64,000 nucleotides of DNA, from the NCBI GenBank assembly GCA_000092065.1, contig CP000596.1, one strand, 5' to 3'. Below the pieces are notes generated by a model that saw nothing but the letters and a program-made list of their open reading frames with translations, was not told the DNA's origin and did not search any database. Positions 5,766 to 57,701 of the stretch are shown piece by piece; positions within the stretch are counted from its first letter, which is position 1, and the number at the start of each line of letters is the position of its first letter. The position numbers and the translations under genes are program-made. This stretch comes from Ostreococcus lucimarinus (Eukaryota).

Positions 5766-5950
5766 CGAGCGAGGACGCGTTTTTTTCCAGCCTTGTTCAG
5801 CGCCTCGATATCGCTCGGCGTCAACGGCGGCGCGCGACCGCGCGGTGGTACTGGCCGCCGCCGCGTCGCGTTCGCCGCCTCGCGATCGTTTTCGCTCGCG
5901 CGCTTCCGCGGGCTCGCCCTCGTCATCGCGCGCGTCGCGCCGTGGCGCGC

Positions 5951-14268: not shown

Positions 14269-16602
14269 CTACGCCTGGCGGTCGATCATGTACGTCACGG
14301 CGGTGACGACGTCGGCGGCGCGCTTGACGACGGTCTTCTCCATCTCGCTGGCGTACGGCACGGGGGCGTCCTCCATGCACAGACGCATCACGGGGGCGTC
14401 GAGCTCGTCGAAGAGGTTTTCGCCGACGAAGGCGCTCACGGTGGCGCCGACGCCGCCGGTGCGCGTGGATTCGTCGAGGATGACGAGCTTGTGCGTGCGC
14501 TGAAGACTGGTTTGGATGGTTTTCCAATCCACGGGCTTCATGCACGTGAGCTCGATGAAGTCGGCGTCGATGCCCTTGGTGTTGAGCTCCGCGATGGCTT
14601 CCTCGGTTTCCTTGACGCCGTGGAGGTAGGTGACGATGGTGACGGCTTTGTCGTTCTTGACGGATTCGTCGCTCGCCAAGTGGTGAACGGTGGACTTGTG
14701 GAGCGGGAGGAAAGAATCTGGCGTCACCGGTCCGCGAGATTTCATCATCTTCACCGGAAGCAACAGCACGCCCGGGCCGTTGTCGCGAATCATAGACTTG
14801 GCCAAGCCGTACGCCTCTTGAGGCTTGGACGCCGAGCAAATCTTCAAGCCGGGAATGCCCATGATGTACGCGTGGAACGGTTGCGAGTGTTCGGCGCCGA
14901 GAGATTGGTTCGGGGCGGTACCACCGGCACCGATGACGGTCATGGGCATTTGAAATTGCCCTCCAGTCGTCGCGTACGTGTTCCCGGCGGACGAGAGCTC
15001 AGCCATGCCGTAAATACCAAAGTTGGCATTCATGAGCTCGACGATGGGGCGGTAGCCGTTCATGGCCTCGCCCAAAGCCTTGCCCATGAAGTGACCTTCG
15101 TCAATGATTTCATCCGCCGCGCGAAGCGTGCCGAAGGCTTGCTGCGTGTTGGCTGGAATGTTGTAAGAAGAACCCGCTTGGAGATCTTCAGCGTGCGCCA
15201 CGCACGTCGGGTCGCGCAACATTTCTTCAAGAATGGCGAGGTTGACGGCGTCACCGATGGAGATCCCGCGCGGATCCAAGCACATCGCGCGAAGAGCTTC
15301 GATGCGTGCCTTGAGCGCGGCGAGCGTCTCCGCAGGCACGATTTTCTCCGTCACAGCCTCCGCCGAGGCGAGACCTTCGACGGGTTCGCGCGCGGCGTAG
15401 TCGACTTTGCCGCTCGGATCGGGGTACTCGAGCTCGGCAGCCAAGTTGGCGGGCGGCGGCGGAGAAGCATCGGCGAACGCCAAAGCGCGCTGAACTTCTT
15501 CCTTAGCCTTGGCAGTCTGTGCCCCGAGGTCGATGCGCTTGGCGTCGGCAGACTCTTCGAAAATCTTAATCGGGTCGCACTCGGCGCGCGCCCAACGCTT
15601 TTCATCCTTGCGGTTGCGCTCGTGCTCCGGATCAGCCGGAGAGTGCCCGTTGAATCGGAAAGTGTGCACTTGCAAGATCGCCGGACCTTTCGTGCGCACG
15701 TGCTTGATCGCTGCGCGACCGACGCGCAAGACATCTTGCACGTTTTGACCATCGACGAGCACGCCCGGAACGCCGTAGTGCTTGCCTTGGTTGAAAACCT
15801 CTTGGTTCGTCGCGACATCCTTGGTGAAGGTGTTGATCGCGCGACCGTTATCGATCACCAAGAAAAGAATCGGCAAGTTCTCCTTCGCCGCCGCGTTCAA
15901 GCACTCCGCCATGCGCCCGTTTTGGGCGCCACCTTCGCCGACGAAGACGACGGTGACGCGGTCGTGCGCGTCATCGCGCCCGAGCATCTTGTCGAGAACG
16001 ATGGATCGCGCCGCACCGACCGCGTACGGCAATTGCTCCGCGACGAGCGCCCATCCACCTTGAAAGTTCGTATCCATGTCGTACACGTGCATCGACCCCC
16101 CGGTACCTCGGCACGTGCCACCGTCCTTACCGAACAACTCCGCCATGACGGCGCCGCTATCCACGCCGCACGCCAAGGCGTGGCAATGGTCGCGGTAGTA
16201 GGAGTGCTTCAAATCATCCTTACGGATCGCGTCTGCCAGGAGCGCCGGAATCGACTCTTGACCGTTGTCAAGGTGCATGAAACCGCGAATCTTACCCGCC
16301 ATGTACGCTTGGTTGCACTCGTTTTCAAAGTCCCGGCACAACTGCATCGTGTAATACGCCTTATTCAAATCCTCATCACTCAAGTCCTCGCATCGCTTCA
16401 ACTCCTCGTCCGTCGCCCCAAACTCTTCCTTCAACACTTGCTTCGCCTTATCCCACGGCGTCTCGATGCGAAACCGCTCCAAATTCGCCGGCGGTCCCTT
16501 CGTCTTCGTCGCTCCCGCGCGCGCCGCCGTCCCTCGTCTCGCCGTCTTCGCGCCTCGCGCGACGTGCGCGCTCGTCGCGGTCGCCCGCATCACTCCTTGC
16601 AT
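14269..16602 (-). CDS. Pyruvate-dehydrogenase-type 2-oxoacid dehydrogenase E1 with alpha and beta subunits fused in one polypeptide, plus an N-terminal targeting-like sequence
   Basis: 777 aa. The N-terminal half is E1-alpha: TPP motif GGWALVAEQLPYAVGAA..VVFVGEGGAQNGR and FRFNGHSPADPEHER. The C-terminal half is E1-beta: MTVIGAGGTAPNQSLGAEHSQPFHAYIMGIPGLK with a transketolase-C-like tail. ATG at 16602..16600. The 887-aa plus-strand ORF opposite is antisense noise. Confidence 0.85.
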   Translation of the reverse strand: MQGVMRATATSAHVARGAKTARRGTAARAGATKTKGPPANLERFRIETPWDKAKQVLKEEFGATDEELKRCEDLSDEDLNKAYYTMQLCRDFENECNQAYMAGKIRGFMHLDNGQESIPALLADAIRKDDLKHSYYRDHCHALACGVDSGAVMAELFGKDGGTCRGTGGSMHVYDMDTNFQGGWALVAEQLPYAVGAARSIVLDKMLGRDDAHDRVTVVFVGEGGAQNGRMAECLNAAAKENLPILFLVIDNGRAINTFTKDVATNQEVFNQGKHYGVPGVLVDGQNVQDVLRVGRAAIKHVRTKGPAILQVHTFRFNGHSPADPEHERNRKDEKRWARAECDPIKIFEESADAKRIDLGAQTAKAKEEVQRALAFADASPPPPANLAAELEYPDPSGKVDYAAREPVEGLASAEAVTEKIVPAETLAALKARIEALRAMCLDPRGISIGDAVNLAILEEMLRDPTCVAHAEDLQAGSSYNIPANTQQAFGTLRAADEIIDEGHFMGKALGEAMNGYRPIVELMNANFGIYGMAELSSAGNTYATTGGQFQMPMTVIGAGGTAPNQSLGAEHSQPFHAYIMGIPGLKICSASKPQEAYGLAKSMIRDNGPGVLLLPVKMMKSRGPVTPDSFLPLHKSTVHHLASDESVKNDKAVTIVTYLHGVKETEEAIAELNTKGIDADFIELTCMKPVDWKTIQTSLQRTHKLVILDESTRTGGVGATVSAFVGENLFDELDAPVMRLCMEDAPVPYASEMEKTVVKRAADVVTAVTYMIDRQA

Positions 16603-16999: not shown

Positions 17000-17837
17000 C
17001 TACACGATGGCTAATGAATTAGAGTGCACGAAACGCACGGCGTAAAAGATCCACGCCAACGGACCGACGATCCACACGAGGTTGGCGGCGAAGACGACGA
17101 CTTTGCTCGTCGCGGACGCGCCGACGTCGTAGCGATTGTAGCAATAGTTGCAATAGTACATCACGGTGCCGTAAAACATTTGATAATTCATCACGATGGC
17201 GACGATGCCGACCGAGCGCGGGGTGAAAGACGCGATCATGGGGACCTCGGGCCAGGACGTGACGGCGATGGAGAGCGCGACGGTGGGGACGAGCATGGTG
17301 AAGCCGTTGCCGACGTCTATCCAAAAGCTCCACGACGTGTGCTGGACGTACGACGGATCGAGACTGGCGTACTGCGCGAACACGATCGACCAGTGCTTCA
17401 GCGACAGCGCTTGCGCGAGCGTAATATCTTCAAATAAACATAACGGTCTCGGGAGCACCTGCGCGCGCGTTCGTCATCGCGCGTCGTCAGTCCGTTCGTC
17501 GTCATTCGTCCCGTTCAAACGTCGCCGTCCCGCGCGCGTCCTCCGCGTCTGCGCGTCCGTTCGCCTCGCCATCGCGCACCCTGTTCCCGAACTTTTTCAG
17601 GTACCCGCGGTGTAGCTTTTGCACGTTCGCGCGGTGCGTCCAGAGCGCGATCTCCCACACGCATATCAGCGCGTTCACGGCGTTGAACAGTAACAACAGC
17701 GCCAGCTTCGGGTTCGCCTCGCGCGCGAGCGCCTCGACGACGCTCGCGCTCGGCGGCGCGCGCGATCGCGCGTCGGCGCACACGAACGGGAGCCAGAGCG
17801 TCGCGACGAAGCCGCAGACGTAGACCGCGGCGAGCAT
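17000..17837 (-). CDS. EBP/EXPERA-family (sterol isomerase-like) multi-pass membrane protein in two exons: 17837..17580 and 17458..17000
   Basis: Exon 1 ends AAC AGG|GTGCGC. The 121-nt intron has a CTGAC branch and ends CGCGCAG|. Exon 2 starts exactly at the track ORF's GTG codon (17458). The junction is phase 0. The conserved acidic residue in ICVWEIALW and the segment WSIVFAQYASLDPSY resemble EBP motifs. Confidence 0.55.
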
Positions 17838-18074
17838 CGCGCGCGGACGCGAACCGTCGCGCGCGCGAGAGTGCGGACGGACGCTCGAGTCGAGCCGACG
17901 CGCGGCGACGGGACAGCGCGACGCGGCCGCGGACGGGACGTCCGACGGAGGCGCGCGACGCGCGAACGCGCGGTGAGAATATTTTAGCGACTCGACTCGG
18001 ACGGGACGACGCGCTCGGCGCGCGCGACGCGACGGACGCGGGCGACGAGGCGCTCGGGAAGACGAGCGGACACA

Positions 18075-19163
18075 ATGGCGTTTTCGCCGACGGCGCGCGC
18101 GACGCCGGATGGGTTGGACCTGGTGCTGTTCGACGTCGACGACGACGACGGTGGGTTTGATTTTAGCGACCACGGCGAGACGGGGACGGACGACGTGCCG
18201 TTCGACGCCGACGCGTGGGACGACGTGCTGAATGCGTTCGACGCGTATCGCGAAGACGCGAGCGCGTTCGACGTCGACGCGTTCGGATGCGCGGCTTGGC
18301 CGGACTTGGACGGTGAAGCGAAGGACGACGATGATTTCGATGGTTACGATGCGTCGCGGCGAAACGCGGCCAAGGCGGTGCGCGAACACGTCGCGAGCGC
18401 GCTGAGAGACGCGCTGAGCGCCTGCGAGAGCGAATTGAGCTGGGCGAGCGACGAGGGCGAATGGGAGACGAAGAGACGCGAAGCGGAGGATGCGGCAAAG
18501 GCGATCAAGTACGTGCGATCGCGCGTGTACGCGCGATTGCGTGCGCTGGGAGCGTCGACCGACACCGCGACGACGAATCGTTTGAAGATGTTGCGCGACA
18601 TGTTCGTCGCAGAGCTTCGAACGTTCGCCGCGCGCGCCGACGCGCTCGAGCGCCGCGCGGCGGAGACGCTCGTCTCGAAGAACTTATGCTTGAATCTGCC
18701 CGATCCGAAGTTGATGTTGAAGAAGAAGTTCAATACCACACTCACGAGTGTGCTTGATTCGTTCGACGCGGCCTTCGAACACGTCGTGGCCAAGGCCAAG
18801 ACGCCCTCGACCAAGGCGCGCGCCGCCGCATCTCGACAATCTGAACAAAATTCGGGTAACTCAAACGCCGTGGAGCAGCAAACCGCACAGGGAAGACACG
18901 AGACGCACGCGAAGAAGATCTTGTCCGCGTGGCTCTGGGATCATTTCTACCCGACGGACGAGCGCTTGAAACCGATTCCGACGCGCGCGGAAAAAGAAGA
19001 TCTCGCGCGCCAGACGGGATTGACGACGACGCAAGTGGGCGACTGGTTCGTCAACGCTCGCGCACGTTTATGGAAACCTTACATCGAAGGCTTAATTCGC
19101 GGCGTGTATAACGACGCCACGGTGAAGAAAGCGCTCGACTTGCAAGCCGAGGCGGCGGCGTAA
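18075..19163 (+). CDS. TALE-class homeodomain protein (KNOX/BELL-like)
   Basis: The C-terminal LSAWLWDHFYPTDERLKPIPTRAEKEDLARQTGLTTTQVGDWFVNARARLWKP is a three-residue-loop-extension homeodomain. ATG at 18075. Confidence 0.8.
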   Translation: MAFSPTARATPDGLDLVLFDVDDDDGGFDFSDHGETGTDDVPFDADAWDDVLNAFDAYREDASAFDVDAFGCAAWPDLDGEAKDDDDFDGYDASRRNAAKAVREHVASALRDALSACESELSWASDEGEWETKRREAEDAAKAIKYVRSRVYARLRALGASTDTATTNRLKMLRDMFVAELRTFAARADALERRAAETLVSKNLCLNLPDPKLMLKKKFNTTLTSVLDSFDAAFEHVVAKAKTPSTKARAAASRQSEQNSGNSNAVEQQTAQGRHETHAKKILSAWLWDHFYPTDERLKPIPTRAEKEDLARQTGLTTTQVGDWFVNARARLWKPYIEGLIRGVYNDATVKKALDLQAEAAA

Positions 19164-45604: not shown

Positions 45605-48600
45605 ATGAGCGCGCGCACGCCCGGGAATCCGCTGTGGGATAAACTCAGGCGTCACGTCAACGCGCCCGGGTCGGCGGAATCGTACAGGTCGCGACAAACG
45701 AGCGGACGAAGCGAACGATTTCGCGACGATTACATCGAAGAGGAAGATTATCGACGCTCGGCGTCGTACGCGCGCGGACGAGACGACCAAAGGACGTACG
45801 ATCGATCGTATTCCTCGCCACGGTCGCGTGGACGGTCGCCGTTGCACGATGATCGAGACGAACGACGATCGGGACGACGGGACGAGTTCGATCGGCGCGC
45901 GCGGTCGCCGCTGGGCGAACGGGACGAGCGGTACGAGCGTGAACGCCGGCGAGGGTACGACGAGCGAGACGAAGATAGGACGGCGATGAGAGCGACGCCC
46001 GAGCGACAGAGGTCGTTTGCGAATCGAGGGGAGGAACGACCGGTGTTGGGTGGCGGAGCGACGGGGAGCGCGGCGGCGCGCGAGGAGCCGTTCGACGCGG
46101 CGTATTATAAGACGAGAATCGCGAGGTTGGAGGAGAAACTCGCGAAGGAGCATCAAAAGGTGAAGTCGACGGTCAAGTATTACGAGGATCAGTTCGAAGC
46201 TCAGGCGAAGAAGCTGAGCGAAAAACACGAAGAGGAGAAAAAGGCGGCGGAGGAGGAGGCGACAAAACTGAAATCGCAGGTGGAGTGGCTGAAGCAGGCG
46301 CAAGAGTCGTTGAAGAGCGAACGCGCGGCGCGCGAGGACTTGGAAAAGGAACTCGCGGCGCTTCAAGAAGAGTATGCTGGGAAGGAAAAGATCGCCACCG
46401 ACGTGAAGACGACAGATGCAAAATTGAAGAAGGAGATCAAGGAGCTCAAGGAGGCGGTTGAAATGGCCAAGCGAGAAGCCGCTGAGGCTGAAGAGAGGAC
46501 GAAGAGCGCGCCGCCAAAGCAACCCGAAGCTGACCCTGCAGAAATTGCCATCTTACAAAAGCAATTGGATGAAGAAAAGGCGCAACGCGACACCATCGAG
46601 AAGAAGTTTGCCGCATTGAAGGCGGAATCCATGGATCCATCTGAAGTCGGTTTGCTGCAAAAGAAAGTGTACACCGCGGAGTCCGAACTCGCGACCGTTC
46701 GTGGAGAACTTGATCGCGCGATGGAGGATAAGCAAGAAGCCACTGTGATTAAGGCGAGGTTGGACGTCGCTGAGAAGCTGGTGTATGAGCTCAAGACAAA
46801 GGCGCAACGCGTCGACGAACTCGAACGCTTTTACGCCGACGCTTCGAAGGACAAAGAGCATTTGCGCCAGGCGTACGACAAGATTCAAGAAATCACGGAC
46901 AAGTTGCTCGCGGTGACGAACGAAAAGGAGGTCCTCGTTCGCCACAGCGCGCAGCAAGCGCACGTTGAGGCTCAACTTGAGCAGACGCGAAGTGAACTCA
47001 ATCGAATCAAAAATGAAGTGCACACGGCGCAGGTGGATAAATCAAACAGCGAGATGAACTTCAAGTACGTCGTTGACGATATTTCCCGCACCCTTCGCGA
47101 ACATGCCATGACGTCGATGCGCTGGGAAGCCCGCATGGCGAGTGAGATAAGTGAAGCAAGCGAGGAACACGCGGAGATTCGCCGTCAAACGATGAATCTC
47201 GTATCCACCGCCGAGTCCGAAGCCCAACGAGTAATGCGAGACTCCATCACCGTCGTCAACGATGCTCGACGCATGTTACAGGATAATCACAAAAAGTCCG
47301 AAGATATCATTGAGGACGTCATTCGCGCTGAGCGTCATCGTATGTCGGACGAAACAAAGACGATGAAGAGCCAGCTTGTAGAGGCTGAACGTAGAGCGCT
47401 ACAGGCAAATGCGCAGATTGATGACTTATCTGAGCAACTGCGCCAAATGCGCATCGATTTGCATCTAGCAAAGGATGCACACGCGGCTTTAACAGCGACG
47501 AGATCAGAAGCGCCTTCTATCGTGGACACGGCGAGAGATTTCGGGAGCGACGGCGTGGCTTCGCCGAGTGGCGAAAAGGTTGATTCGCTTCGACAAAAGT
47601 TGCGCACAGCTCAGTTCCAGCTGCTCGCATTGAAAGCTCGACGTAAGTTTGAGATCGACCCGGATCGTGAGGAACTCGAGGAGAAACTACAGTTCATGCG
47701 TGAAGAGCGCGAGCAGCTTCTGGCGAATCGCCCTGCCGCCGCGTTTGAAGAAACCGCCGAAGTATTGGGGCTTCAAGACGAACTTCAATGGTGCCGTTCC
47801 AAGATTGCAAAGCTCGAGGGAGATCGACGAGAACAAAGCCGTGGCTCGTCAGAACGAGAAAAAAGTCTCGAGGATCAGCTCGAGCGCACTCGGTCGGAGC
47901 TGGAAGAGGTTGAGAAGACGATGAGGCAGCTCAAGAAGCAGCAGCTCGACGCATTTGAAGACGTCGCGGAAGACATGGAATCACATTTGCGAATCAAGCT
48001 GACTGAAATGCGCGAAGAGCTCATGCTCGCGAATGCACAACGTGAGAAGTCACGTAATGAGATGAATCACGCGCAAGATGAGCTGATCGTGCTTCGAAGC
48101 GAGCGCGATAACGCCATCACAAGTGTGAAGACAATGCGCGAAGAGCTCGCCGAGTTGCGCCAGACAATCTCAGAAATGTCAGCGTCAAGAGCGGAAATCA
48201 TGACGGCGGGTCGGGAAGAAGTTCGTGCGCGAGAGGACGAATTAAACGCCGTGCGCAGAGAGTTGAGTAATATTCGCGGTCAGAAAGAAAGTGCCTTACT
48301 TACTATGGAGGAGTTGAAGTCGCGACTGCTCGATACTGAGGCGCGGCTCAGTGAGGCGTCCGAGCAGCGTCAGCAATTGGAGCTCGCGCGTAACGACGAA
48401 ACGAGATCGTCGTCTGAGCGAAATAGATTAGAAAACAAGGTGCTGGTATTACAGACAGAGCGCGATGAGATGCAAACGAAGCTTGAGCAGGTGATCATCT
48501 CGCGAGAGGAATTGGAAGAGGAACTCAAAGTGTTGCTCACAAAGTTGAACCAGTCCGAGGAACAAACAACGGCAACGGTGGCGCAGAGCCGCTCTGAGGT

Positions 48601-50104
48601 ATTTATGGCGAACCAAACCATTTCATCACTTCGTGCACAGCTTGACGAGGTTGAATCGGAGTTCGCCTCGGCGAGCAAGTCGTTCGAGCGCGTTCGCGTC
48701 GACAGGGATGTCGCCACTAAGGCGCTTGAGGAAGTTCGCGAAGACCTCGGTCAATGCGAAGTCGAGCTTAAGCTATCTCAGAGGGAGACCGAAATCAAAG
48801 AACGCGAACGTCAAGAGGCGATCGCGATGATGCAACGGGCGCAAGATGCTCTTCAAGAGACGCGACAGGAGCTCGAAAAGACTGAAGCTGAGCTCGTGAA
48901 TTTGGTGGAAGTTGTCGAGCAAGGCGAAGAGACGTTACAACGCACCAAGGTCCAAGTCACGCAAAAGACTCACGATTTATCTACGGCGGAAGCACGATTG
49001 AGTGATTTGATACGCCAAGCGGATGCATATGAAGCCGAGAGGGACGTCGCAAATGAATTGTTGAGTGAGTCTCGCGGCAAACTCTCTGAACTTCAAGCGC
49101 TATCGCAGATCCGCGAAAACGACCTTCTCAACTTGCGAGTGCAACGCGATAAACTCGCTGAAAAGTATGACGAAACGGTGAACGAGTTGAAGCTGACTGA
49201 GGCGTACTTGCAAAAAGCGAGCGTGGCGGTTGAGAAACATCGCGCGGAGCGAGACGGTTTGAGCCAAGCGCTCGAAGCGGCCAACGACACGTTGAGCGCG
49301 ACAGAAAGCCAGCTTCAAACAGTTTCAGCGCAACTCGCGGAACTATACGAAGAAGTGGAAGAGTATAGAACGCAAGGAGGTAGCGAAGACGAAGAGCTGA
49401 TCGAAACTCAAAAAGCTTTGGACGCCGTCATTGACAAGTTCAAGATTTTGCGGGACGCGCACGAAGAGGCTTTGGGTAACTTGGAAGCTGAAATCGCCGC
49501 GCGACAACGCGAGCAACGCGAGCACAAGCAAGCTATTGAAGCTGCAAGAGTCGAATACGAAGAACACGTGCGAATATTGAAGCGTGCGGTGAATGCGAAT
49601 TCGGATCAAGGTGCACTCGCGAGCGAGCTCTTTGCCATCTTGAAAGATTTCCAGCAAGCTCGCGCAGACGCCGAGGTCGCCGGAGATGAAAGTGAGAAGA
49701 GAACCGCGGCGCAGTACTCAAGACAGATGGTCACATCCCCTAATGAGGCCGCGTTTGAGTCTTTGATGCGAATCAAGACGACTCTCGACGACCTCAAGCA
49801 ACGACTGCAAAGCGCCGCCGTCCGCTCGGGCGACGGAGCCGACGTCGAAACCGAAGCCCTTCGAACCAACCTCCGACTTCGCGTCTTGGTATTCGAAACC
49901 TTTATCGATCTTGTCTCCCAGCGTTCTCGCGTCGGCGCTTACAAAGGCCAAGTCGAGGTCGACGCTCGCGACCGCGCCGCCGAAGAAGACGTTCGATACG
50001 AGGGCGTCCCGAAACCCGCCCTCGTGCGCAAGCGCAGCATCGCCGGTTTCGCCCCGAACATCAACTTTGGCATCAAGCTCTTCGGCAACAACGATCGCGA
50101 TTGA
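45605..50104 (+). CDS. Large coiled-coil protein (1499 aa) with an N-terminal RS/RD/RE-rich region
   Basis: Single uninterrupted ORF with ATG at 45605. Heptad-rich E/K/L/A/R composition throughout. Confidence 0.75.
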   Translation: MSARTPGNPLWDKLRRHVNAPGSAESYRSRQTSGRSERFRDDYIEEEDYRRSASYARGRDDQRTYDRSYSSPRSRGRSPLHDDRDERRSGRRDEFDRRARSPLGERDERYERERRRGYDERDEDRTAMRATPERQRSFANRGEERPVLGGGATGSAAAREEPFDAAYYKTRIARLEEKLAKEHQKVKSTVKYYEDQFEAQAKKLSEKHEEEKKAAEEEATKLKSQVEWLKQAQESLKSERAAREDLEKELAALQEEYAGKEKIATDVKTTDAKLKKEIKELKEAVEMAKREAAEAEERTKSAPPKQPEADPAEIAILQKQLDEEKAQRDTIEKKFAALKAESMDPSEVGLLQKKVYTAESELATVRGELDRAMEDKQEATVIKARLDVAEKLVYELKTKAQRVDELERFYADASKDKEHLRQAYDKIQEITDKLLAVTNEKEVLVRHSAQQAHVEAQLEQTRSELNRIKNEVHTAQVDKSNSEMNFKYVVDDISRTLREHAMTSMRWEARMASEISEASEEHAEIRRQTMNLVSTAESEAQRVMRDSITVVNDARRMLQDNHKKSEDIIEDVIRAERHRMSDETKTMKSQLVEAERRALQANAQIDDLSEQLRQMRIDLHLAKDAHAALTATRSEAPSIVDTARDFGSDGVASPSGEKVDSLRQKLRTAQFQLLALKARRKFEIDPDREELEEKLQFMREEREQLLANRPAAAFEETAEVLGLQDELQWCRSKIAKLEGDRREQSRGSSEREKSLEDQLERTRSELEEVEKTMRQLKKQQLDAFEDVAEDMESHLRIKLTEMREELMLANAQREKSRNEMNHAQDELIVLRSERDNAITSVKTMREELAELRQTISEMSASRAEIMTAGREEVRAREDELNAVRRELSNIRGQKESALLTMEELKSRLLDTEARLSEASEQRQQLELARNDETRSSSERNRLENKVLVLQTERDEMQTKLEQVIISREELEEELKVLLTKLNQSEEQTTATVAQSRSEVFMANQTISSLRAQLDEVESEFASASKSFERVRVDRDVATKALEEVREDLGQCEVELKLSQRETEIKERERQEAIAMMQRAQDALQETRQELEKTEAELVNLVEVVEQGEETLQRTKVQVTQKTHDLSTAEARLSDLIRQADAYEAERDVANELLSESRGKLSELQALSQIRENDLLNLRVQRDKLAEKYDETVNELKLTEAYLQKASVAVEKHRAERDGLSQALEAANDTLSATESQLQTVSAQLAELYEEVEEYRTQGGSEDEELIETQKALDAVIDKFKILRDAHEEALGNLEAEIAARQREQREHKQAIEAARVEYEEHVRILKRAVNANSDQGALASELFAILKDFQQARADAEVAGDESEKRTAAQYSRQMVTSPNEAAFESLMRIKTTLDDLKQRLQSAAVRSGDGADVETEALRTNLRLRVLVFETFIDLVSQRSRVGAYKGQVEVDARDRAAEEDVRYEGVPKPALVRKRSIAGFAPNINFGIKLFGNNDRD

Positions 50105-53339: not shown

Positions 53340-56300
53340 TCACCGCGGCGGTTGTCGACTCACCTTGACTGGGCTGAATGGTTCGCTGAATCGCCGGTCG
53401 CTATAGTACGTGCTCTTAGTTTGCTCCAATAGAGAAACAGAAGCCGACGTCGCTCGAGCAAACGTGGCGCGCAAGGCTTCATCGCGCGCGAGAAGGTCAA
53501 ATTGGTCTTGCAAGCTTTCTCGAACCGTCGACAGGGCTTCGACCTCAGCTTCCATGGTTTGAACGTCGCTCATCACGGCACGATATTGCTTTTCGTACGA
53601 ATCTGGTTCGACGACCGTCGGCATCGTTCGAGGCGATGCTGTCGGAGTTGAATATCGAGAGCCATACGCGAATTCCTTCGACGCCACCCGATTGCGTCCG
53701 AGAAGACGAATATTTTCTTCGTAAGACTTGTCAAAATCCCAACCTGTCGAAATCGTCGGGCGTTCATATTTGGTGAGCGAATACGTCTCCTGCGCGCCGC
53801 TGGGTGATCGAGCGTTCATTTTCCATTCGCTAAAAATCTTGCGAACGACTCGTTTCTGCCTATGCTCGGTTTTCAATCGATGGTACTTCATCACTTCCGT
53901 GAACTGTCGCCACGAGCGCAAAAACTTTCGTCGAGCTCTGTCTGCAAGAATATCGTGCATCTTCTTCACCGTGCGATTTCTGTGCTCAGAAATTCTTTGC
54001 GAGTACCGCACCCAGGCCATGAACATTGGGTTTCTGTAGATGCGCTCGTTACGAGCGAGCCCCCAGCGCATGGCTACGTTGACTCGGACCATGTCTGAAA
54101 CCGAGGAATGAGTCACGTGCAGTGGCGCTATGGCGCGCTCGACATTTTGCAGTCGCCGTTCGACGACACGGAAGGAACGTATTTGCTTCATGTATCCCGA
54201 CCAACTATTAAACGCTTTGACGAGAGCCCGACGGCGCATGCGTTGCAGGCTGGTAGAAACGAGCTCTTTTTGTCTGCGTATCATCAGCACGTGCGTGGAC
54301 CAACCATCAAAGGCCTGCGCCAGCGTTTTATTGCGCGCGCGGTGCAAAGACTTTGAAACGAGCGTCCTGTGACGCTTTTGTTCGATCATCTTGTAGTTCC
54401 ACGCGTTGAAAGCTCGAGAAAGCGTTCGATTCAGCACTTTTGTCAAAGACATCTTCACTGCGCGTTCGATGCGACGTTCGTACGCACGAGACGCGCGAGC
54501 TTCGTCCACGCTTTCAATCCAAGAGTAAAACGCCCTGACTGTGATTCTGTACCTCATTTTCCTCAAACTGTTCGCGACGAGTAGTCGATTTCGCTTCTTT
54601 TTGTGCACGGCGTCTAACCAACCGTCAAAGGCATACGCTAAGTGACGCTGCTTCACTCGAAGAATCACCATGTGAGCGGCGTCCATGACGCGTCGTCGTT
54701 CATCGATGAAAAATACCCAGCGGTTGAACGCACGGGCTACCGCGCGCATTCGCGCTCGCGCCAGCACACCGCGTGCTTTGCTTTCATTTACTTTCATTTG
54801 CTTGATTTCCTGTACATGATCGCGCCACTGCATGAATGCGTAACCGAGAGATTGCCGCTTCACGCTTCCTAAGATTTGCGCCAACTTGTTCGATCGAAGT
54901 TGCTCTTGTTTCATGTCAGCCATCCTACGCATTTTCGCCTCCTGCGTGGCGTGAACCCACGTTTTAAACGTTCCTCGCAAAGATCTGTCTCTAAATCTCT
55001 CGTAGAACCTGCCGATGATTGCTTGATAACGTTTCTTTGTTTGAACGTGGTCGAGCCAAGTATTGAAAGCTGTGAAAATGACTCGTTGCGTGAGACGTGT
55101 GAGAGCCCGATCCATCTTCCATCGATCGATTCGCTGCTCGCTCGCTCGTTGCTTCCACTGCTCAAACGCACCTGCCAAGAGTCTGTTCCTGATCCTTGAC
55201 ACGACTCTCTCGATCACTTGTCGTTGATGTCGCAGCGCCGCGGCGGTGCTCGACCAGTCGTAAAACGCCACGTGCAAACGTCTTCCTCTGAATCGAGAAA
55301 CGGCGCGGTTAAGCAACGCGCGTTGGGTCTTCTTTTCGCCGACGCGCGCAACCCATCCTGAAAACGCGTAATACAGCTTGCACTGCGACATCTTTTGAAT
55401 CGCTTTCTGGAAAATGACTCGATGCACCTTGGCTTCGTCGACACGTTCTGCCCAGGTATCAAACGCCATACGAAGATTGTTTCGTTGCATCTTTTGCGTC
55501 ACACGAACGAGCGTTCTTCGCTGCTGCGCAAATATTTTTGCCGACGCTCTCCATCGTGCGAAAGCTTTAGCTTGCGCCTGCTTGCGTATGGAAGTGATAG
55601 CCTTTGCCACCACCCGCCGCTGACGCCGCGTGTGGACAGCGTAGTCTTTCCACTGCAAAAACGTTCTCTTCAGTCGTTCTTTCGCGGCATTCTTCGCTTG
55701 AAGGTTGACGATATTTTCAATATTTTTCAAATGAATTTTTGCCGCGATCGAATCCGCGGTGACTTCGCGCCAAGCGTTGAAAGCGCATGAGATGAGACGA
55801 TTCGATGCGCGCATCAAAACGGTTCGCATGAGCTCACGTTGACGCTTCCTGTCCTCAACCACTTGCACCCACGTGTTGAATGCAGTGAACTGGAGTCTAG
55901 ACGTCATACGATTCAGTGCGAGAGTCAATTTCAATCGTTGATCTCGCTGGCTCATGGCATACTTGTACCAATACACGAAAGCTGCTCTCGCCTTGCGAGT
56001 CGCATGAATCTTGCAGAAAATGTCCAAACGCTGCTCCAAGAGTTCGTTCGCCAACTGCTCCGTCACGCGCACGTTGCGCGATTCTTGGGCGATAGAAAGC
56101 CATCCCCAGAAGCACATTGATAGTGCCGCTGTCGAGGAATTTATTCGCATTTTTTCAGCCATTTTGTGAGCTTGCACGCGCACGTACTTTTTGTGCTCCA
56201 CGACTTCGCTCCATTGCGCAAATGCCTTGGCGAGACGTCGCTGTTGCCAACGTCTGATTGCTTTTTCCATCGCAACCTTGTACACAGAACTTCGGTGTAG

Positions 56301-57701
56301 CATCTCTTTCCACTCATAAAATGCGTTGCACAGCTGTAAGGATGTTCGCCGGGTGATAAATCTCGCCGCCATTCGCTGTAAGCGCTTACTTTCTCGCGCG
56401 ACGCCGACCCACTGCGTGAAGACTCTTCTTTGCGTCGAGCACAAAAACCACGTGATGGCCTTTTTACCTTCCATCGCTTCCGCGCGCGCAGTGTCTACGA
56501 CTAAGCGCCACTCGACGAATGCCTTAAATATCAGTCTAGTCGACAGTTTCGCGACGCTCTGACGTGCCTTGGCATCGTTCATGCGACTCTGCGTCACGGC
56601 GTCTCGCCAACTGTAAAATGCCGAGTACAGCTTGTGGTTCATCATTTCCAGCATCATACGCTCGGCTCTTCGTTTCTTTTCTCGATCGACCTTTGATTTA
56701 TCAACATCGCTTTTCCACACACTCAAAACCGCGAGTTTCATTTGTCTTTCGGACTTTTTCAAGCATCGTTGCACGGCTAATCGACACCACTTGTCGCGAG
56801 ACAGACGGTTTTTCCACTCAAAAAAGTACTCGCGCAAAAATCTAATTCTAATTTTCTGATATCGCTCATCAGCCTTTAGCACCATGCGTTTTTTGCGATC
56901 GCATCGCTCCCTCCACTCATCGAAGACGTTCCGCACCGTCATGACGATGCGTTCGCCGAGAAAAGCACCGGCCCTTCGAACCGAGATGTTGTACGACTTT
57001 GATTTCATCGTCGAGTTACGCCACGCGAAAAAGACTCTGTACGCAATCTTATGATCTCTCTTTTGACGCATCGCGCGAATAATAACATTATTCAAATGCG
57101 TCAACTCGTGCTCGTGTCCGTCTCGCGCCTTTTGAAACGTGCGAACGAGATTTTCCATGGCGCCAAAGCCGTGTGTCACAGCCTTCTCCGTCGCCGCGTG
57201 CCAGTGCTCTTGAAACGATTCCTTTCGCGCGCTCACTTCGGCCGGAGTCTCCAAAGCCTTCAAAATCACCTCCCACGCCCCGAAGCACCGCCGATTGATC
57301 AACTTCAAGCTCCCGCGCTCGCCCTCGGTCGCATCAAACTGTTCGTTGACGCCAAACTTTGTGGAACAAAACACCAACTTTCTCGATCCGCGCTGTCGGC
57401 GCTGCAACAGCAATCCACTCTCCGCGTGTTCAAATCCGTAATAAGTCTTCATCACCTCTCCATTCGCGTCGTCGCTCGCCTTTTCCACGATCCTTCGCTC
57501 TCGCACGCGAAATCTCGTCCGAGGATCATGGCGTCCGCTCGTCGACGCCGCGTCGCTCGACGCCGTCTCCAACCACCCGCGCACAGTCCCGCCATCCTCC
57601 TCGTTCGCCGCGAACACCAGCGCCGTCCCGGACGCGGCGTCGACGAGCTGAACGTACGATTGACTTCGCAGCGCGTCCAGGGACGCGTTCGCCGTCGCCA
57701 T
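53340..57701 (-). CDS. Sfi1-like centrin-binding repeat protein (1453 aa)
   Basis: More than 25 repeats of roughly 33-38 aa, each ending [AG]-x-[AT]-F-x-x-W-[KR] (AFNTW, AFYDW, AFEQWK, TFKTW, AFMQWR, AFNRW, AFDGW ...). ATG at 57701. Confidence 0.65.
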   Translation of the reverse strand: MATANASLDALRSQSYVQLVDAASGTALVFAANEEDGGTVRGWLETASSDAASTSGRHDPRTRFRVRERRIVEKASDDANGEVMKTYYGFEHAESGLLLQRRQRGSRKLVFCSTKFGVNEQFDATEGERGSLKLINRRCFGAWEVILKALETPAEVSARKESFQEHWHAATEKAVTHGFGAMENLVRTFQKARDGHEHELTHLNNVIIRAMRQKRDHKIAYRVFFAWRNSTMKSKSYNISVRRAGAFLGERIVMTVRNVFDEWRERCDRKKRMVLKADERYQKIRIRFLREYFFEWKNRLSRDKWCRLAVQRCLKKSERQMKLAVLSVWKSDVDKSKVDREKKRRAERMMLEMMNHKLYSAFYSWRDAVTQSRMNDAKARQSVAKLSTRLIFKAFVEWRLVVDTARAEAMEGKKAITWFLCSTQRRVFTQWVGVARESKRLQRMAARFITRRTSLQLCNAFYEWKEMLHRSSVYKVAMEKAIRRWQQRRLAKAFAQWSEVVEHKKYVRVQAHKMAEKMRINSSTAALSMCFWGWLSIAQESRNVRVTEQLANELLEQRLDIFCKIHATRKARAAFVYWYKYAMSQRDQRLKLTLALNRMTSRLQFTAFNTWVQVVEDRKRQRELMRTVLMRASNRLISCAFNAWREVTADSIAAKIHLKNIENIVNLQAKNAAKERLKRTFLQWKDYAVHTRRQRRVVAKAITSIRKQAQAKAFARWRASAKIFAQQRRTLVRVTQKMQRNNLRMAFDTWAERVDEAKVHRVIFQKAIQKMSQCKLYYAFSGWVARVGEKKTQRALLNRAVSRFRGRRLHVAFYDWSSTAAALRHQRQVIERVVSRIRNRLLAGAFEQWKQRASEQRIDRWKMDRALTRLTQRVIFTAFNTWLDHVQTKKRYQAIIGRFYERFRDRSLRGTFKTWVHATQEAKMRRMADMKQEQLRSNKLAQILGSVKRQSLGYAFMQWRDHVQEIKQMKVNESKARGVLARARMRAVARAFNRWVFFIDERRRVMDAAHMVILRVKQRHLAYAFDGWLDAVHKKKRNRLLVANSLRKMRYRITVRAFYSWIESVDEARASRAYERRIERAVKMSLTKVLNRTLSRAFNAWNYKMIEQKRHRTLVSKSLHRARNKTLAQAFDGWSTHVLMIRRQKELVSTSLQRMRRRALVKAFNSWSGYMKQIRSFRVVERRLQNVERAIAPLHVTHSSVSDMVRVNVAMRWGLARNERIYRNPMFMAWVRYSQRISEHRNRTVKKMHDILADRARRKFLRSWRQFTEVMKYHRLKTEHRQKRVVRKIFSEWKMNARSPSGAQETYSLTKYERPTISTGWDFDKSYEENIRLLGRNRVASKEFAYGSRYSTPTASPRTMPTVVEPDSYEKQYRAVMSDVQTMEAEVEALSTVRESLQDQFDLLARDEALRATFARATSASVSLLEQTKSTYYSDRRFSEPFSPVKVSRQPPR

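Follow-up and report, generated by a model that had tools for sequence, protein, structure and literature searches.

The open reading frame at positions 18075..19163 of the analysed window (the whole 64-kb stretch of Ostreococcus lucimarinus DNA, to which all coordinates below refer) is a real TALE homeobox gene, which has already been published as Ostlu_27999; we have correctly re-discovered it, and it is not a new member of the family. Judging from its sequence, the encoded protein is neither a KNOX nor a bona fide BELL protein. It is BELL-like in the homeodomain only and belongs to a separate class, Mam-A, restricted to the Mamiellophyceae, the class of green algae to which Ostreococcus belongs. 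We consider it probable that this non-KNOX TALE factor corresponds, in the Mamiellophyceae, to GSP1 of Chlamydomonas and to the BELL/GLX half of the TALE dyad, and that it binds KNOX to form a heterodimer that switches on the diploid programme.

Gene structure and identity

According to the ORF listing, the gene is an intact ATG-to-stop coding sequence on the plus strand, without introns, that encodes 362 aa followed by the stop codon. The nearest in-frame stop codon 5' of the ORF lies at 17985, and no further ATG occurs between that position and 18075; the use of the ATG at 18075 as the start is backed by the DGLDLVL box (aa 12-18), which is conserved among orthologues. The GC content of the window is about 63%, its intronless ORFs are tightly packed, and several listed ORFs of a spurious type overlap the TALE locus in other frames. 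About 90 bp 5' of the ATG, in otherwise GC-rich intergenic DNA, there is an AT-rich, TATA-like element, AATATTTTA (17978..17986, plus strand), and a comparable ATATATTTTA was found 5' of the TALE orthologue in L001. The element could possibly be the core promoter of the gene.

The TALE genes of Archaeplastida have been catalogued by Joo et al. (2018, BMC Biol 16:136, PMC6219170). A script comparison of the window ORF with Table S2 of that study identified it as Ostlu_27999_GSP1, with 100% identity across the 362 residues and the stop. The window accordingly stems from O. lucimarinus CCE9901 or a strain almost identical to it, the other Ostreococcus-like orthologues being no more than 60% identical. 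The table lists Ostlu_27999 as a TALE, non-KNOX gene of class Mam-A and as a “GSP1 homolog”, in agreement with the tie to the Chlamydomonas Gsm1/Gsp1 system that had been drawn in an earlier, sequence-only reading of this DNA. Three TALE genes are listed there for O. lucimarinus, one each of the KNOX, Mam-A, and Mam-B types (Joo et al. 2018, PMC6219170). The KNOX gene, Ostlu_5313, is of the KNOX-Chloro type with KN-A, KN-B, ELK, and KN-C1, and the Mam-B gene is Ostlu_33640 (Joo et al. 2018 Table S2, PMC6219170). The partners that the sequence-only reading proposed to look for elsewhere in the genome are therefore already on record, outside the window; within the 64-kb window, a regex scan and tblastn with Ostlu_5313 and Ostlu_33640 as queries matched Ostlu_27999 alone, and both partner genes are absent from it.

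The TALE homeodomain

The homeodomain spans aa 273-335 (18891..19079, plus strand), as defined by Pfam PF05920/PF00046, matches to PDB sequences, and Foldseek, and its signal is far above chance. Two Pfam families were matched and no others, both towards the C-terminus: Homeobox_KN (PF05920) reaches 45 bits, where the cut-off is 24 (E 9.9e-12), and Homeodomain (PF00046) likewise exceeds its own cut-off (E 6.8e-07). In a phmmer search against PDB sequences, the homeodomains of MEIS1/2, PKNOX1, TGIF, and PBX/Exd were on top, with E values of 1e-8 to 1e-5. The AlphaFold2 model, for which 18 family sequences were used as input, has a pLDDT of 84-90 in the homeodomain, and Foldseek superposes this predicted homeodomain on that of MEIS2 at 1.3 A rmsd with a TM score of 0.88-0.90, followed by Exd and PBX1. 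These matches confirm the claim of a TALE homeodomain gene at 18075-19163, and both strings that had been quoted as its hallmarks do occur in the protein (HFYPTDERLKP, aa 290-300; DWFVNARARLWKP, aa 323-335).

The three-helix fold, the residues W48, F49, N51, and R53, and the WFVNAR motif that characterize TALE homeodomains were all found, and residue 50, which is small or aliphatic in these proteins, is Val in Ostlu_27999. The core of the recognition helix, WFVNARARLWKP (19044..19079, plus strand), contains W48, F49, V50, N51, R53, and R55; it was assigned from the sequence and by comparison with the BEL1-like homeodomains P0021-P0035, and it shares 10 of its 12 residues with the BELL-class WFINARVRLWKP. 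Our homeodomain alignment took in one BEL1-like sequence, MEIS2, two GLX sequences, one of Class-B, and the KNOX and Mam-B proteins of O. lucimarinus. In this set, the homeodomain of Ostlu_27999 is 51% identical to the BEL1-like one, 44% to MEIS2, 43-44% to GLX, 39% to Mam-B, and 34% to the KNOX protein Ostlu_5313; the similarity to BEL1-like as against KNOX sequences places Ostlu_27999 on the non-KNOX (BELL/GSP1) side of the dyad.

The animal MEIS and PBX proteins share the homeodomain fold with Ostlu_27999 and, through MEIS2, Exd, and PBX1, provide its best matches among solved structures, but they differ from it in several respects. Ostlu_27999 has neither a MEIS (HM) nor a PBC domain, its loop is longer by 6 residues, position 25 is Ile whereas MEIS and PBX have Tyr, and position 50 is Val whereas they have Ile or Gly.

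The extended loop between helix 1 and helix 2

The loop between helices 1 and 2, HFYPTDERLKPIP (aa 290-302; 18942..18980, plus strand), is composed of the TALE extension and a 6-aa insertion of the family, as established by the alignment with MEIS2 and by the multi-class alignments. The insertion, YPTDER (aa 292-297, nt 18948-18965), corresponds to a 6-residue gap in MEIS2 and in all the other TALE classes aligned. With three TALE residues and six inserted ones, the loop is thus 9 residues longer than that of a typical homeodomain, and the extra residues at positions 23/24, which number at least 3 in TALE proteins, are 9 here. The earlier description of YPT as the three-residue loop was therefore a misassignment, since YPT is part of the insertion and not the TALE triplet.

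The canonical P24-Y25-P26 reads P-I-P in Ostlu_27999 (PIP in place of PYP). Within the family, P24 and P26 do not vary, and residue 25 is Ile or, in the Bathycoccus-like sequences and P0018, Val. Eight residues of the region (F291, Y292, P293, T294, R297, P300, P302, and T303) are the same in all 18 family sequences of the alignment, which covers the Bathycoccus-like ones and P0018, a shorter protein. A loop insertion of this kind has been said to be common to GLX and Mam-A (Joo et al. 2018 Additional file 5, PMC6219170); in our homeodomain alignment, the Picsa GLX protein has an insertion of just 2 residues at a nearby site, and the Dolichomastix GLX-basal protein has none.

Regions outside the homeodomain

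Conservation is strongly uneven along Ostlu_27999, and this contrast, with the full-length orthologues and the kept gene order described below, speaks for selection on the gene. The homeodomain is 83-89% identical among Ostreococcus-like orthologues and 67% identical to the Bathycoccus-like ones, whereas the Ser/Thr/Ala/Gln-rich linker that precedes it (aa 246-272; 18810..18890, plus strand; pLDDT <50) is poorly conserved, with identities of 0-31% between orthologues (8-31% among the Ostreococcus-like ones). The N-terminus (aa 1-95; 18075..18359, plus strand) is acidic and, according to the family alignments A1/A2 and the predicted model, largely disordered; its pLDDT is 29-53 save for a short helix at aa 45-62, and its identity between orthologues is 32-47%. 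Two short conserved boxes stand in this segment, the DGLDLVL mentioned above and AWDDVLNAFDAY (aa 47-58).

Between the N-terminus and the linker lies a conserved helical region (aa 96-245; 18360..18809, plus strand), which is predicted to fold as a four-helix bundle and is 41-58% identical among Ostreococcus-like orthologues. It contains the boxes VREHIAxVLRD, RETKRREAED, NRLxMLRDMFVAELRxF..LERR, and LCLNLPD..F..LDAFD, and the structural matches of the predicted bundle were generic bundles only. By elimination and from its conservation, the region is presumed to be the heterodimerisation module, with the interface within aa ~96-245. At the other end of the protein, the C-terminal extension YIEGLIRGVYNDATVKKALDLQAEAAA (aa 336-362; 19080..19160, plus strand) is modelled as a prolongation of helix 3, with a predicted helix at residues 318-361 whose pLDDT is 45-57 past residue 335. 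This extension is conserved at 78-93% identity among Ostreococcus-like orthologues, against 26% in comparison with the Bathycoccus-like sequences.

Orthologues, lineage restriction, and synteny

The search of 5.8 billion proteins returned, as full-length relatives, Mamiellales-type sequences only, among them the O. tauri “putative homeodomain protein” P0017 and Bathycoccus-like proteins of 500 aa; the first matches beyond the Mam-A family were land-plant BEL1-like proteins, which align through the homeodomain alone. Full-length orthologues are 48-60% identical to Ostlu_27999, with the other Ostreococcus-like ones not exceeding 60%, and for P0017 and P0004 of O. tauri the identity is 47-59%, varying with the gene model and alignment used. 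The protein P0001 is 99% identical to Ostlu_27999, and its cluster counts 119 members, drawn from assemblies in Logan and ENA. The Bathycoccus-like P0019, P0020, and P0037 resemble Bathy06g01510. When a profile of the pre-homeodomain region (aa 1-273) was used in an exhaustive HMMER search of 1.84 billion representatives, 9 matches were obtained, all of them Mam-A-type proteins or fragments; at the level of sequence, this region is lineage-restricted.

The assignment of the protein to Mam-A is borne out by the boxes over its whole length, the HFYPTxxRxKPxPT loop, the WFVNARARLWKP helix, and the identity with the listed Ostlu_27999. The other members of the class (ostta17g00450/Ostta_14130 of O. 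tauri, Micco_102835 of M. commoda, and Bathy06g01510 of Bathycoccus) have the same boxes, the extended TALE loop, the recognition helix, and the C-terminal extension, and the family, like Ostlu_27999, has no homeodomain introns. The Micromonas and Bathycoccus proteins differ from it in their far longer N-termini (500-778 aa).

A metagenomic contig of 44 kb, from a different Ostreococcus-like species, preserves the gene neighborhood. The conserved order consists of a fused E1 alpha/beta dehydrogenase, two small ORFs, the TALE gene, an ankyrin protein, a UAA transporter, and a RING finger, and it confirms the orthology of the TALE genes. By their gene names, the O. tauri orthologues are located on chromosomes 4 (KNOX), 17 (Mam-A), and 9 (Mam-B) (Joo et al. 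2018, PMC6219170); none of these is chromosome 2, which bears the candidate mating-type locus, and the O. tauri locations speak against a linkage of the TALE genes to that locus. The paper on the candidate mating-type region of chromosome 2 does not mention TALE genes (Benites et al. 2021).

Class assignment

Neither KNOX1, KNOX2, and ELK (PF03790, PF03791, and PF03789) nor POX (SKY + BELL, PF07526) gave any Pfam match in Ostlu_27999 at E<=10. The hhalign comparison of the Mam-A N-terminus with 16 BEL1-like N-termini yielded no credible match, with a probability of 1.4%; its best stretch is a 34-column motif in which AVREHVASALRDAL is set against ISRHFRCLRDAI, the last part of the BELL domain, at E 0.037 and at a non-equivalent position. 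As for PBL-Chloro, the Mam-A family profile was compared by hhalign with Picsa_02499, the founding GLX member and the sole full GLX sequence in the comparison, and it aligned in the homeodomain only; with a single GLX protein compared, a very remote relationship may still exist. PBL homology was not found in the non-KNOX proteins of Mamiellophyceae, Mam-A included, in the published survey either (Joo et al. 2018, PMC6219170). Taken over Pfam, hhalign, and the exhaustive profile search, no heterodimerisation domain of a known type was detected in Ostlu_27999. When Mam-B served as the tblastn query, an alignment of 127 aa (32% identity) was obtained that extends about 60 aa upstream of the homeodomain; the Mam-A/Mam-B homology beyond the homeodomain that this alignment would imply is unsupported by profile comparison, in which hhalign gave no credible match between the two N-termini.

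The label “KNOX/BELL-type” that had been given to the gene consequently fits in a loose sense only, through the BELL-like homeodomain, and it does not extend to the KNOX and BELL domains themselves, which are absent at the threshold given above; the sequence-only reading is thus borne out in part.

The land-plant BELL proteins (BEL1, BLH) have the most similar homeodomain and also form the KNOX-binding side of the dyad. Unlike them, Ostlu_27999 has no POX/SKY-BELL domain, no ZIBEL or VSLTLGL-type motifs were seen in it, and its loop is 6 aa longer; being intronless, it also has no BELL-class intron at homeodomain position 24(2/3), and the loop itself differs at position 24. The Chlamydomonas reinhardtii protein GSP1 (GLX class, Cre02.g109650) resembles Ostlu_27999 in being on the non-KNOX TALE side and partnering a single KNOX. 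However, GSP1 has 1028 aa, a PBL-Chloro domain, and homeodomain introns at 12[2/3] and 44/45, whereas Ostlu_27999 has 362 aa, no introns, and no detected PBL homology. Plus-gamete-specific expression and zygote activation have been demonstrated for GSP1 only.

Could the protein be, instead, a true BELL orthologue whose POX (SKY/BELL) domain has diverged past recognition? The proximity of its homeodomain and of its helix 3 to the BEL1-like sequences, the sole N-terminal match given by hhalign, and the fact that GSP1 is frequently termed a BELL protein in the literature would all fit this explanation. We nevertheless regard it as quite improbable. The AVREHVASALRDAL motif lies about 170 aa from the homeodomain and does not adjoin it, PF07526 is unmatched and the hhalign probability is as low as stated above, the BELL-specific intron is missing, and no BELL protein is present among the matches of the exhaustive pre-homeodomain profile search of 1.84 billion representatives; moreover, the BELL class has been traced to an ancestral GLX within the streptophytes (Joo et al. 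2018, PMC6219170). A KNOX-class (MEINOX) identity could be argued from the Pfam Homeobox_KN match, although this model covers all TALE homeodomains, and it has already been refuted by the domain content, given the absence of KNOX1, KNOX2, and ELK and the 34% homeodomain identity to Ostlu_5313; we give it practically no weight. The same applies to the notion of a chance ORF or a decaying pseudogene, which draws on the many long spurious ORFs that GC-rich genomes yield, several of which overlap this locus. The significant domain matches, the orthologues with their conserved homeodomain, boxes, and synteny, and the nearly identical P0001 have already refuted it. Ostlu_27999 is best described, on the sequence comparisons made here, as a Mam-A protein.

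Proposed role in the sexual cycle

For the Mam-A protein of O. lucimarinus, we infer binding to KNOX, with the helical region as the interface, and a sexual or zygotic output. The C-terminal homeodomain would contact DNA via W48, F49, V50, N51, R53, and R55, and the helical region (aa ~96-245) would bind KN-A/KN-B of Ostlu_5313, the only KNOX protein of the species, whose gene lies at another place in the genome. If the analogy with GSP1/GSM1 holds, the Mam-A/KNOX heterodimer would then turn on the diploid (zygote) programme once both partners share one cell. The same analogy would predict gamete-limited expression, entry into the nucleus upon cell fusion, and zygotic targets. No expression data for Ostlu_27999 came up when the literature was searched with gene identifiers.

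Published yeast two-hybrid assays bear on the first of these steps. In O. tauri as well as in M. commoda, KNOX interacts with each of the two non-KNOX proteins, Mam-A and Mam-B; Mam-A does not bind Mam-B in either species, and the binding of Mam-A to KNOX requires sequence outside the homeodomain (Joo et al. 2018, PMC6219170). The Mam-A proteins assayed were those of O. tauri and M. commoda. Since Mam-B is a KNOX binder too, either of the two paralogues may carry the zygotic function. With these results on the orthologues added to the analogy, “candidate sexual-cycle regulator”, as the gene had been called, seems a reasonable description of Ostlu_27999.

A KNOX-binding TALE factor might also have a non-sexual role, in vegetative, haploid-phase, or environmental responses or as a modulator of KNOX availability. 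Sex has never been observed directly in Ostreococcus (Benites et al. 2021). Haploid cells of the prasinophyte Pseudoscourfieldia marina co-express the two TALE partners, with the Gsm1 and Gsp1 homologues both upregulated in the haploid strain, so the arrangement known from Chlamydomonas, in which each gamete provides one partner, need not apply. In addition, the Micromonas Mam-A transcript NEPCC29.03919 comes from a culture transcriptome (MMETSP), which means that the class is transcribed in that culture, and regulatory roles have been proposed for extra non-KNOX paralogues (Joo et al. 2018, PMC6219170). However, the role of KNOX and BELL/GSP1 in the haploid-to-diploid transition has been maintained between Chlamydomonas on one side and Marchantia and mosses on the other, and Mamiellales retain meiosis genes, recombination signatures, and two mating-type haplotypes (Benites et al. 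2021); the role of modulator, in turn, has been ascribed to Mam-B/Class-B and not to the conserved Mam-A (Joo et al. 2018, PMC6219170). We therefore see a non-sexual role as unlikely, while still deserving consideration, and retain the KNOX-dependent activation of the diploid programme as the probable function of Mam-A.

Significance

In Hox-PBX/Exd structures, the Hox hexapeptide docks into a pocket formed by the TALE loop. On this analogy, one may speculate that the invariant F-Y-P-T-x-x-R-x-K-P-x-P-T loop of Mam-A is a functional docking surface and not a tolerated insertion, and that, with the lineage-restricted helical bundle, it replaces the lost PBL domain as an interface for the recognition of KNOX or of a third partner. 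We hold this idea to be doubtful; if it were true, the extended loop and the bundle would represent a re-invented mode of heterodimerisation in the oldest sexual TALE dyad.

The use of TALE genes as a handle on Ostreococcus sex had reportedly been raised already by Lee et al. in 2008 and Worden et al. in 2009. Joo et al. (2018, PMC6219170) made the connection between TALE genes and sex explicit by cataloguing Ostlu_27999 and showing that its O. tauri orthologue binds KNOX. The sexual-cycle hypothesis for this gene has thus been in the literature for years and is not new. Heterodimers of KNOX with BELL or GSP1 constitute a conserved haploid-to-diploid switch in green plants, and because sex in Ostreococcus is inferred from genomes only, the TALE genes offer some of the best molecular entry points to it.

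Further matches to the TALE gene

When the protein Mam-B (Ostlu_33640), the second non-KNOX TALE paralogue of O. lucimarinus, was compared with the window by tblastn, 127 aa were aligned over positions 18717-19094 with 32% identity and an E-value of 5.6e-15, in an alignment whose first residues precede the homeodomain of Mam-A, the product of the TALE gene, by about 60 aa. Near the start of this alignment, the last conserved Mam-A box (LCLNLPD..) resembles, as judged by eye, the sequence MELTLPSG.. of Mam-B, which hints that the "homology-A" motif of Mam-B could be the equivalent of that box. The comparison of Mam-A and Mam-B profiles from which the homeodomain had been removed gave no support for this correspondence.

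Two proteins matched by the Mam-A pre-homeodomain profile, P0038 and P0039, correspond to window positions of approximately 18575-18860 and 18075-18360, respectively, and are pieces of the same O. lucimarinus TALE gene, systematically altered. Their substitutions (A to V, T to I or M, P to L or F, and S to F or L) are the signature of C-to-T converted DNA. Both look like gene calls from assembled bisulfite-sequencing reads and, given this apparent origin, are considered database artefacts, not divergent homologues.

The region upstream of the TALE gene

Immediately upstream of the TALE gene, and divergently oriented to it, lie two neighbouring hydrophobic ORFs (17000-17458 and approximately 17505-17840, both on the minus strand), neither of which matched a Pfam family. 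Their counterparts in L001, the syntenic contig from another Ostreococcus-like species, are called as two overlapping genes of 147 and 120 aa; the pair may be the two parts of a single gene for a membrane protein, separated by a short intron or by a frameshift. The divergent promoter region 5' of the TALE gene is very GC-rich and surrounds an isolated, AT-rich, TATA-like element common to both species, which reads AATATTTTA in the window (17978-17986) and ATATATTTTA in L001 (approximately 5830-5845).

Other genes of the window

At 14269-16602 on the minus strand, a single polypeptide of 777 aa joins the alpha subunit of a 2-oxoacid dehydrogenase E1 (E1_dh) to the beta subunit (Transket_pyr plus Transketolase_C), a fusion that is kept in L001, where it measures 783 aa.

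The 1499-aa, E/K/Q-rich ORF at 45605-50104 (plus strand) has no matches to Pfam families, even at E<=10; its N-terminus is rich in R, D, E and S, and the rest looks like a single long coiled coil. Between them, this ORF and the repeat gene described next explain why, at 46-57 kb, GC content is lower (52-58%) and AT skew is positive.

The second of these ORFs (53340-57701, minus strand; 1453 aa) contains about 30 or more tandem repeats of approximately 33 aa each, with the motif AF..W or F..W(R/K). The Pfam model of Sfi1, a centrin-binding spindle-body protein, matches five of its stretches with 18 bits, slightly under the cut-off of 22 (E-value of 0.0012). In this very small alga, the gene probably encodes a centrin-binding protein similar to Sfi1.
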